NCBI GenBank assembly: GCA_038826135.1
Contig: JAWBON010000003.1
Coordinates: 1 to 32,000 of the forward strand
Source of the DNA: Candidatus Odinarchaeota archaeon
GTDB lineage: Archaea; Asgardarchaeota; Odinarchaeia; Odinarchaeales; Odinarchaeaceae
Direction: 5' to 3'
Length of the DNA stretch: 32,000 nt
This document shows positions 7,312 through 14,258 of this stretch, piece by piece. The position numbers and the translations under genes are program-made. The notes below the pieces were generated by a model, which did not search any database, was not told the origin of the DNA, and was given only the letters and a program-made list of their open reading frames with translations. The stretch's first letter is position 1. Every line of letters starts with the position of its first letter.

Positions 7312-7443
7312 GCGGGGGTTCCCAAGCCAGGTCTAAGGGGCAGGACTGAGGAAGGATAAACCTTTAGATCTCCTGTGGACTTCCTTTCAAAAAAGGAGGC
7401 AGAGCGTAGGCCTTCATGGGTTCAAATCCCATCCCCCGCACCA
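7312..7443 (+). tRNA. tRNA-Leu(GAG) with two introns (7352-7369 canonical 37/38; 7379-7404 in the variable arm); CCA encoded
   Basis: Acceptor stem GCGGGGG/CCCCCGC, anticodon stem CAGGA/TCCTG, T arm ATGGG TTCAAAT CCCAT; 85 nt plus CCA after splicing; both introns have BHB helices. Confidence 0.93.
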
Positions 7444-9451: not shown

Positions 9452-9556
9452 GGCTCGGTAGCTCAGCCCGGTAGAGCGGCAGCATGGTAAGTTGTCGGTC
9501 TTGTATGCATTGCATACGAGGATGAATCGTGGGTTCAATTCCCACCCGAGCCTCCA
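9452..9556 (+). tRNA. tRNA-Thr(GGU) with a 28-nt intron at 46/47 (9499-9526); CCA encoded
   Basis: Acceptor GGCTCGG/CCGAGCC, D stem GCTC/GAGC, anticodon GGT, U73 discriminator; the intron has a 9-bp inner hairpin and a TGTC/GATG central helix. Confidence 0.92.
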
Positions 9557-13258: not shown

Positions 13259-13555
13259 ATGTCAGATGCAAATGTAGTATACGTTGGAAATAAGCCAGTT
13301 ATGAACTATGTTTTAGCTTGTGTTACCCAATTAAACCAGGGTGCTGATGAAATTATAGTAAAGGCTCGTGGTAGAGCTATTAGCAGAGCTGTTGATGTCG
13401 CAGAGATTTTAAAGAACAGATTTATGACGTCGGTAGAAGTCAAGGATATAAAAATAAGCACAGAACAGATCAACACAGCCGAGGGCGGCCAAGCTAACGT
13501 AAGTGCTATCGAGATAGCCTTAAGCGGTAAAGCTATCCCAAAAACTAAGAAATAA
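13259..13555 (+). CDS. albA: DNA/RNA-binding chromatin protein Alba
   Basis: [27 protein letters not shown] and VSAIEI motifs; SD GAGGTGA. Confidence 0.96.
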
Positions 13556-13653: not shown

Positions 13654-14202
13654 TTAACCTAAATTGTAACCTATTTTTCTCACTAAGTCTTTTCTGCCTT
13701 GTCTTTGAGTATCGTCCTCGATCTTGTTAACAGACTGCCCGTCTACGACCCCCAGCACGGCCCTGCCTACGGAGGAGCCGAGCGGGGTCTCAGCTAAAAT
13801 TACCTTACATTTATTAGCGGTCCCTACATATAAATTGACTACGCCGTAGCTAAGCTTTAAGGCGTTCATTAAATTTATAGGCCAAGCGCCTTTAAACTGT
13901 ATTACAAACACGTGACTTGCACCTATGTTTAGTGCGTTCCGCGCCACTATTTTTTTTAAGGTTTCATCATTACCTTCTACACGGGTTAGCCTTGGATCAG
14001 CCTCATTCATCGCACATGCAAACCTAACTTGACCGTCAGTAGTCCCCGGGACGGCTGCTTGAACAATCCGGTAAAGTTCGTCAACCATTTTAATAGAGAA
14101 AATGGGGTTTTAATCCAGTGATTAAAAATTCCCCTGCCCTATTATTATCTGGTGGTCAGGTTCTTTTTCTATATCTACACTAATTAATTTAATTTCACTC
14201 AT
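13654..14202 (-). CDS. Adenosine-specific kinase family protein (COG1839-like), split by a 27-nt intron; exons 14129-14202 and 13654-14101; 173 aa
   Basis: ATG 14202 with SD GAAGGTGA gives MSEIKLISVDIEKEPDHQIIIGQG; after splicing it continues NFSIKMVDELY, matching the family G-Q-x-[HN]-F-x-K-x-V-[ED]-x-LY motif; GASHVF, PIN and GVVDG motifs downstream. Confidence 0.85.
14102..14128 (-). other. Putative BHB (tRNA-type) intron in an mRNA
   Basis: Minus strand: GGGG AA^T TTTTAATC ACTG GATTAAAA CCCC AT^T; two in-frame TAA when unspliced. Confidence 0.85.
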
Positions 14203-14258
14203 ATGCATTCACCTTCTTTTTTAATAGAATATTTTATTAACTTGAAAATTATAAAAAT

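Follow-up and report, generated by a model that had tools for sequence, protein, structure and literature searches.

Introduction

In the crenarchaeal orders Desulfurococcales and Sulfolobales, the gene cbf5 is reportedly interrupted by a BHB intron, in accounts attributed to Watanabe in 2002 and Yoshinari in 2006. The splicing of the cbf5 pre-mRNA in Crenarchaeota depends on EndA (PMC2738675, Yokobori 2009), and cbf5 figures there as the one confirmed case of a coding-sequence intron of this kind, other introns being mentioned only as 'predicted' (PMC2738675). A paper of 2020 still gave it as the only example besides the intron in a Haloferax 5′ UTR (PMC7714728), that is, the BHB intron in the 5′ UTR of the Haloferax volcanii HVO_1309 mRNA, which has been confirmed as an EndA substrate both in vivo and in vitro (PMC7714728). 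On the other hand, BHB introns of archaeal tRNAs are unusually abundant in Asgard archaea, and it is with tRNA genes that the papers on Asgard introns are concerned (PMC11291895; bioRxiv 10.64898/2026.10.13.758758). A literature search, with most subscription journals outside its scope, returned nothing on coding-sequence BHB introns of Asgard archaea or on an intron in a PF04008 gene.

In eukaryotes, the HAC1/XBP1 mRNA carries a small intron that is removed by IRE1, after which an RNA ligase, which in metazoa is RtcB, joins the exons. This IRE1/RtcB-dependent reaction has been named spliceosome-independent splicing (PMC13149111).

The gene described here, a member of the PF04008 family, lies on the minus strand of a 32,000-nt stretch of DNA (hereafter the window; positions 1 to 32,000 of contig JAWBON010000003.1, assembly GCA_038826135.1) from an uncultured archaeon of the Asgard class Odinarchaeia, whose genome assembly amounts to 1.26 Mb in 105 contigs and is 93% complete. 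As with the cbf5 intron, the putative intron of this gene is short, lies within the coding sequence, is defined by a BHB motif with predicted cuts between the second and third bulge nucleotides, is lineage-specific, leads to mis-annotation of its gene and occurs in a host whose EndA would be of a hetero-oligomeric, broad-specificity type. The genes differ, however (a pseudouridine synthase against a PF04008 protein), and so do the lineages (Crenarchaeota against Odinarchaeia). Moreover, cbf5 introns are mostly described as unconventional BHB motifs (PMC2738675), whereas the PF04008 motif is closer to the strict hBHBh′ form, and the splicing of cbf5 is supported by cDNA and in vitro data, whereas the PF04008 intron has no such support.

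In the case of archaeal tRNA introns, the likeness extends to the motif, the size range and the predicted enzymes, but the host RNA is here an mRNA, so that removal serves the reading frame and not a tRNA fold. The exon halves of the PF04008 motif are codons (Ile-Gly-Gln-Gly-Asn / Phe-Ser-Ile), and the motif is therefore constrained by the protein sequence. The HVO_1309 intron is likewise an EndA-type substrate within an mRNA, but it resides in an untranslated leader and leaves the reading frame uninterrupted. The HAC1/XBP1 system also involves a small mRNA intron, a protein endonuclease plus an RNA ligase, and a removal that alters the frame or the product; IRE1, however, is not an EndA homologue, and the reaction is stress-regulated, whereas there is no evidence of regulation for the PF04008 intron.

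A PF04008 gene interrupted near its 5′ end

The mechanical list of open reading frames begins this gene at ATG 14088 and gives it 144 aa. This downstream frame alone matches the Pfam profile PF04008 (Adenosine_kin; PAE2307/PH1918-like proteins) over positions 22-153 with 133.6 bits, for a gathering score cut-off of 25 bits. Translation from the upstream ATG 14202, with X at both stops, extends the match to positions 1-153 of 154 and raises the score to 142.7 bits, which indicates that the upstream piece encodes the missing N-terminus of the family, exon 1 supplying profile positions 1-21. Membership of the family, understood as a full-length match above the gathering score, is thereby met. The two coding pieces are separated by a 27-nt insert that contains both in-frame TAA codons (14124-14122 and 14112-14110): after the codons of exon 1 the unspliced frame reads AAT TTT TAA, with the second TAA four codons on, and translation of the unspliced message ends after 26 residues. 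Removal of 14128-14102 yields a product of 173 aa from the whole gene, 14202-13654 on the minus strand. The features of the gene and of its putative intron are collected in Table 1. Relatives also show, on reading of their sequences, AT-rich boxes upstream of the PF04008 gene.

Table 1. Coordinates of the PF04008 gene, of the elements of its BHB motif (window positions) and of the further BHB inserts in the same genome (contig:positions).
Feature	Position	Strand	Description
Possible archaeal TATA box	14249-14257	minus	AT-rich TTTTTATAA, ~50 nt 5′ of the start codon; inferred only
Shine-Dalgarno-like motif	14209-14216	minus	GAAGGTGA, 6 nt 5′ of ATG 14202; read directly in the sequence
Exon 1	14129-14202	minus	24 codons (MSEIKLISVDIEKEPDHQIIIGQG) plus AA of the Asn25 codon
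Putative BHB intron	14102-14128	minus	27 nt, phase 2, two in-frame TAA; interrupts codon 25 after its second base; contains the third nt of the 5′ bulge, the 8-bp hairpin with loop ACUG, CCCC and the first two nt of the 3′ bulge
Exon 2	13654-14101	minus	last base of the Asn25 codon, 148 codons (FSIKMVDELY...GYNLG) and stop TAA 13656-13654
Outer exon-exon helix	14144-14137 with 14098-14091	minus	8 bp, UAAUAGGG with CUCUAUUA; minimum-free-energy fold
Central helix	14134-14131 with 14107-14104	minus	4 bp, exon GGGG (codons Gln23-Gly24) with intron CCCC; minimum-free-energy fold
5′ bulge	14130-14128	minus	AAU; predicted cut 14129/14128
Inner stem	14127-14120 with 14115-14108	minus	perfect 8 bp, loop ACUG; minimum-free-energy fold
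3′ bulge	14103-14101	minus	AUU; predicted cut 14102/14101
Junction peptide			predicted tryptic peptide of the spliced product, EPDHQIIIGQGNFSIK
gcvPA insert	C60:2456-2485	minus	30-nt BHB insert, CCCC/GGGG helix, AUA bulges, in-frame TAG
CitG insert	C79:1196-1220	plus	25-nt BHB insert near the 5′ end; triphosphoribosyl-dephospho-CoA synthase family
Radical-SAM gene insert	C33:9419-9447	minus	29-nt BHB insert splitting CxxxCxxC (...CTFRCAY / CQNYD...)

The conceptual product is matched by six solved homologues with E values down to 1.5e-39, all of which were deposited as hypothetical proteins. Its alignment to one of them, PH1918 (PDB 2d16), reads IIGQGNF, a gap of 9 residues and SI, and this gap corresponds to exactly the nine codons of the intron; exon 1 aligns to residues 3-23 of 2d16 and exon 2 to residues 24-161. 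Uninterrupted Asgard homologues read GQGNFSV (in the locus L014) or GMANFSI at the junction, without any gap. An NCBIfam search with the gene product gave no match, and 'adenosine-specific kinase' is the annotation name for PF04008 members and not a tested function, no kinase activity being shown here. Public calls of the interrupted gene measure 132-144 aa, as compared to 156-172 aa for uninterrupted homologues. An earlier note, made from the letters of this stretch alone, had already argued that the listed frame misses the family N-terminus, that a Shine-Dalgarno motif and ATG 14202 precede a 27-nt insert with two in-frame stops, and that the gene would be mis-annotated as truncated; all these elements are indeed read where they were placed, and the profile coverage and the short public calls agree with the rest. 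The alignment with intronless orthologues that it had proposed likewise came out as expected, the product being colinear with both PH1918 and L014.

A BHB motif at the exon-intron boundaries

The minimum-free-energy fold, computed over 14150-14085, contains two 3-nt bulges on opposite strands with a 4-bp helix between them, as the definition of a BHB motif demands. Flanking helices are found on both sides, as in the strict hBHBh′ form, although the outer side is slightly relaxed. The 5′ strand presents, in this order, the outer helix, the central helix, the bulge and the inner helix, and the 3′ strand the inner helix, the central helix, the bulge and the outer helix, which is the order of elements on both strands of archaeal pre-tRNAs. 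Within the stretch AUUUU on the 3′ side, the bulge AUU is followed by U14100, paired with A14135, and by U14099, in a mismatch with C14136. Since the outer helix is thus imperfect near the 3′ bulge (an A-U pair, then a C.U mismatch), and weaker still in the second genus, the motif is better described as slightly relaxed than as strict. Cuts placed behind the second nucleotide of either bulge would join AA to T and read GQG-N-FSIK across the junction.

The energy of this fold is -17.1 kcal/mol (z = -2.8), and 2 of 200 shuffled sequences fold as well. Such a single-sequence statistic is modest; it is the comparative evidence that puts the finding far beyond chance. When the intron and its flanks were compared by blastn-short with the whole genome, no second copy was detected, only chance matches of 10-14 nt, so there is no sequence-level sign of a repeated or mobile family of introns.

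Conservation of the motif across Odinarchaeia

The site was compared in 12 lineages, which comprise all 7 species genomes of Odinarchaeia (two families) and 5 metagenome contigs that were reached via truncated public gene calls with 60-78% identity. An insert is present at the identical codon in all of them (12/12), with lengths of 25, 25, 26, 27, 30, 31, 32, 34, 34, 35, 39 and 46 nt. Only three of these lengths are divisible by three, as would be expected of a length on which translation imposes no constraint, and the exons lie in different frames in the remaining nine lineages. In spite of these differences in length and sequence, the canonical cuts, with two bulge nucleotides on one side and one on the other, restore an in-frame GQGNFS(I/V)K in every lineage, and hence a workable exon junction.

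The bases of the motif are observed to be nearly invariant in the 12 lineages: in the central helix GGGG pairs with either CCCC or CUCC, the 5′ bulge reads AAU or AAA, and the 3′ bulge follows the pattern A-N-U, its middle base being free. The 5′ arm of the hairpin shows a mean pairwise identity of 51%, as compared to 75-84% for the flanking exon bases, and pairing is nevertheless complete, since inner-stem positions 1-7 are paired in all 84 cells, whereas shifting the partner by 1-3 nt leaves only 25-53 of the 84 paired. Each of these positions shows at least two pair types, with double changes that include U-A to C-G and A-U to C-G. An RNAalifold analysis of an independent MAFFT alignment recovered both the outer and the central helix, together with the 3-nt bulge and the lowest part of the inner stem, and 6 pairs showed compensatory changes; only the first 4 inner pairs were reported in this case. 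MAFFT misplaces the hairpin arms where loop lengths differ, and the pairs of the inner stem were thus counted in register from the bulges. By either count (84/84 cells; 6 RNAalifold pairs) the structure is kept by compensatory change, with the caveat that this covariation represents fewer independent events than cells, the lineages being related and most stem differences separating a few clades. Both the fold drawn in the earlier note and the return to frame that it had deduced from the canonical cuts were recovered, the former as the minimum-free-energy structure and the latter in the source genome, with its 173 aa, and in 11 further lineages. Only splicing from the mRNA, as far as sequence comparison can tell, makes sense of the manner in which the 12 lineages keep the putative intron.

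A wider sample of 400 Asgard genomes gave a PF04008 match in 71. The interrupted pattern, taken as a PF04008 match that begins at profile position 14-19 or contains two TAA, was confined to the 7 Odinarchaeia and absent from the other 64 PF04008-bearing genomes. The simplest reading, which remains an inference, is that the common ancestor of the class acquired the intron and its descendants retained it.

A different irregularity was seen in another Asgard genome (G103:C14:3165-3803), where PF04008 profile positions 1-33 and 8-154 are matched within one frame of 229 aa. The arrangement resembles a partial duplication of the N-terminus, or else an in-frame insertion, and not an intron.

Putative splicing pathway and alternative explanations

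The enzymes that such a reaction would need, EndA and an RNA ligase (RtcB), are both encoded by the host. The EndA catalytic domain (PF01974) is matched on contig C45 and at the ends of contigs C48 and C72, which overlap and join into one gene, giving two EndA paralogues. They agree with the heterotetrameric type that has been reported for Asgard archaea, an (alpha-beta)2 enzyme to which the L1 loop gives a broad specificity (PMC5829648). The overlap between the two contig ends, C48:1-135 (-) and C72:2-247 (+), spans ~125 nt with one mismatch and suggests that it is the assembly, and not the gene, that is broken here. RtcB (PF01139) is matched on contig C16. This match (C16:2586-5357) falls into profile segments 1-50 and 49-426, and because they lie ~1.4 kb apart in one open frame of 995 aa, an intein within the RtcB gene is suggested.

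The proposed pathway would start with a primary transcript in which the exon GGGG pairs with the intron CCCC, between two 3-nt bulges and together with the intron hairpin and the exon-exon helix. EndA is inferred to cut after the second nucleotide of each bulge, and RtcB to join the exons and probably to circularise the intron, whereupon the mature mRNA would read ...GQG-N-FSIK... and direct the synthesis of a PF04008 protein of 173 aa. Cleavage, ligation and protein product are all inferences from observed features of the DNA, in the absence of RNA, circular-intron, enzymatic or peptide data. Even so, it is highly probable that the intron is spliced from the PF04008 mRNA by the tRNA machinery.

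Several other explanations can be envisaged. The upstream ORF of 26 codons could be a remnant, or a separate frame, of a split or decaying gene whose product, if any, would be the 144 aa from Met 14088, and gene callers do give proteins of 132-144 aa for all close relatives, and in the source genome an ATG lies four codons into exon 2. The upstream codons, however, do not behave as a remnant: pN/pS is 0.27 over exon-1 codons 2-24 and 0.24 over the initial 30 codons of exon 2 (12 lineages), so that purifying selection, as estimated from these ratios, is the same on both exons. Exon 1 also has its own start codon, ATG or TTG, in 12 of the 12 lineages, in most of them just behind a Shine-Dalgarno-like GGTGA or GGAGG. 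There is, besides, no conserved internal start, since Met 14088 is replaced by Leu in 5 lineages, where translation could in most cases begin no earlier than codon 14 of exon 2; this accounts for the public calls of 134 aa. A product initiated there would be without the ~23 residues that precede the exon-2 start point in all six solved members of the family, and a decaying insert would not retain a covarying hairpin and invariant BHB bases throughout the class. A split or decaying gene is accordingly considered very unlikely. An origin of the insert in assembly or sequencing can practically be disregarded: the source assembly is certainly fragmented, with its 105 contigs, but an insert at the same site is found in 12 independently assembled genomes or contigs, single-contig genomes included. 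An intein at this position was also rejected, the insert having stop codons and only 9 codons in length.

On the other hand, the unspliced mRNA might be decoded through translational bypassing or recoding, either by a ribosome hop such as that of phage T4 gene 60 or by readthrough of the stops. The stop that follows right after the last codons of exon 1, and the stable hairpin behind it, are loosely reminiscent of the gene 60 coding gap. Yet readthrough is impossible in 9 of the 12 lineages because their exons lie in different frames, and these frame-shifting intron lengths in most relatives led to the rejection of stop-codon reassignment as well. For a hop, no matched pair of take-off and landing codons exists in the correct frame (for the TTT at 14127-14125 there is no TTT in frame on which to land), no such pair is conserved in the second genus, and what is conserved instead is the BHB geometry, with its 4-bp helix and its two 3-nt bulges starting with A, for which a hop has no need. 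Bypassing or recoding can hardly be credited on these grounds. A last possibility is that EndA cleaves the message without any rejoining, the BHB being a regulatory cleavage or decay site; EndA is known to process BHBs that are not introns, as in rRNA processing stems and in the Haloferax 5′ UTR (PMC7714728). It would be left unexplained, however, why frame and family motif are restored in 12 of 12 lineages despite their varied intron lengths unless the ends are ligated, and RtcB is encoded in the genome, so cleavage alone is scarcely plausible.

Other interrupted coding sequences in the genome

The earlier note had also suggested that more such genes might be hidden in this genome and that a genome-wide scan for BHB motifs could uncover them. 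The scan, which combined the BHB motif with ORF fusion, was used merely to propose candidates, and homology then decided on each of them. It showed no enrichment of hits in comparison with a reversed-genome null (e.g. 40 vs 68; 59 vs 76), and it cannot, for this reason, estimate how many coding-sequence introns the genome holds. As a source of candidates it was useful, since three further genes found support in homology: gcvPA, CitG and a radical-SAM gene (Table 1).

In the case of gcvPA, exon 1 corresponds to positions 9-99 of the GDC-P profile and exon 2 to positions 101-428, and the split is common to five Odinarchaeia genomes (the source genome plus G001, G002, G003 and G005). Four Odinarchaeia genomes have a CitG exon 2 that begins at profile position 17-18, and in a fifth, G002, the profile match continues through a TGA. 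Removal of the insert from the radical-SAM gene rebuilds its CxxxCxxC motif. Including the PF04008 gene, at least four coding sequences of this 1.26-Mb genome appear to be interrupted, and for at least three of the four genes the intron appears to have been in place before the two Odinarchaeia families diverged. That splicing by the tRNA machinery has been an obligatory, long-standing step for a whole set of metabolic genes of Odinarchaeia is a reading towards which these data lean, without settling it.

Four other candidates (C23:14012-14037, C11:19922-19946, C88:2408-2434 and C9:7105-7126) were dismissed as motifs that occur by chance between neighbouring genes, because their exon tails and heads look like those of two separate proteins.

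The crenarchaeal-type cbf5 intron is absent from the source genome, because the cbf5-type TruB_N gene (C2:27118-27456) matches in a single open frame of 331 aa without stops. Nor does the intron described here meet the definition of the cbf5 intron family, which is an intron in cbf5 at the codon of the catalytic Asp, its host gene being a PF04008 member.

Implications for Asgard gene catalogues

As far as the searched literature goes, the putative intron makes PF04008 a second gene family after cbf5, here in Asgard archaea, and the comparative proof of its coding-sequence BHB intron is unusually clean, the splicing itself being inferred. Standard gene callers shorten such genes (all public calls of the PF04008 gene have 132-144 aa in place of 173), which implies that Asgard metabolic reconstructions and protein-family censuses carry hidden errors. 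The heavy load of tRNA BHB introns in Asgard archaea appears to spill into mRNAs, and a prokaryote with coupled transcription and translation would have to splice these messages before they are read; the cost, the timing and the possible regulatory use of such splicing become directly testable. If such splicing is indeed obligatory for a whole set of metabolic genes, these prokaryotic relatives of eukaryotes would possess a small 'spliced proteome', and Asgard gene catalogues would systematically miss or shorten the genes that belong to it.

Other genes of the window

Two tRNA genes are found in the same window, at 7312-7440 (+) and 9452-9553 (+). Both carry introns, as follows from lengths of 129 and 102 nt for a match to a model of 71 positions. 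ARAGORN mis-reads one of them, and BHB-like motifs are visible, such as an 18-nt insert at ~7352. Just downstream of the PF04008 gene, and convergent with it, lies a gene of the Alba family (13259-13555, +), and this convergent arrangement is retained in all five metagenome contigs examined.
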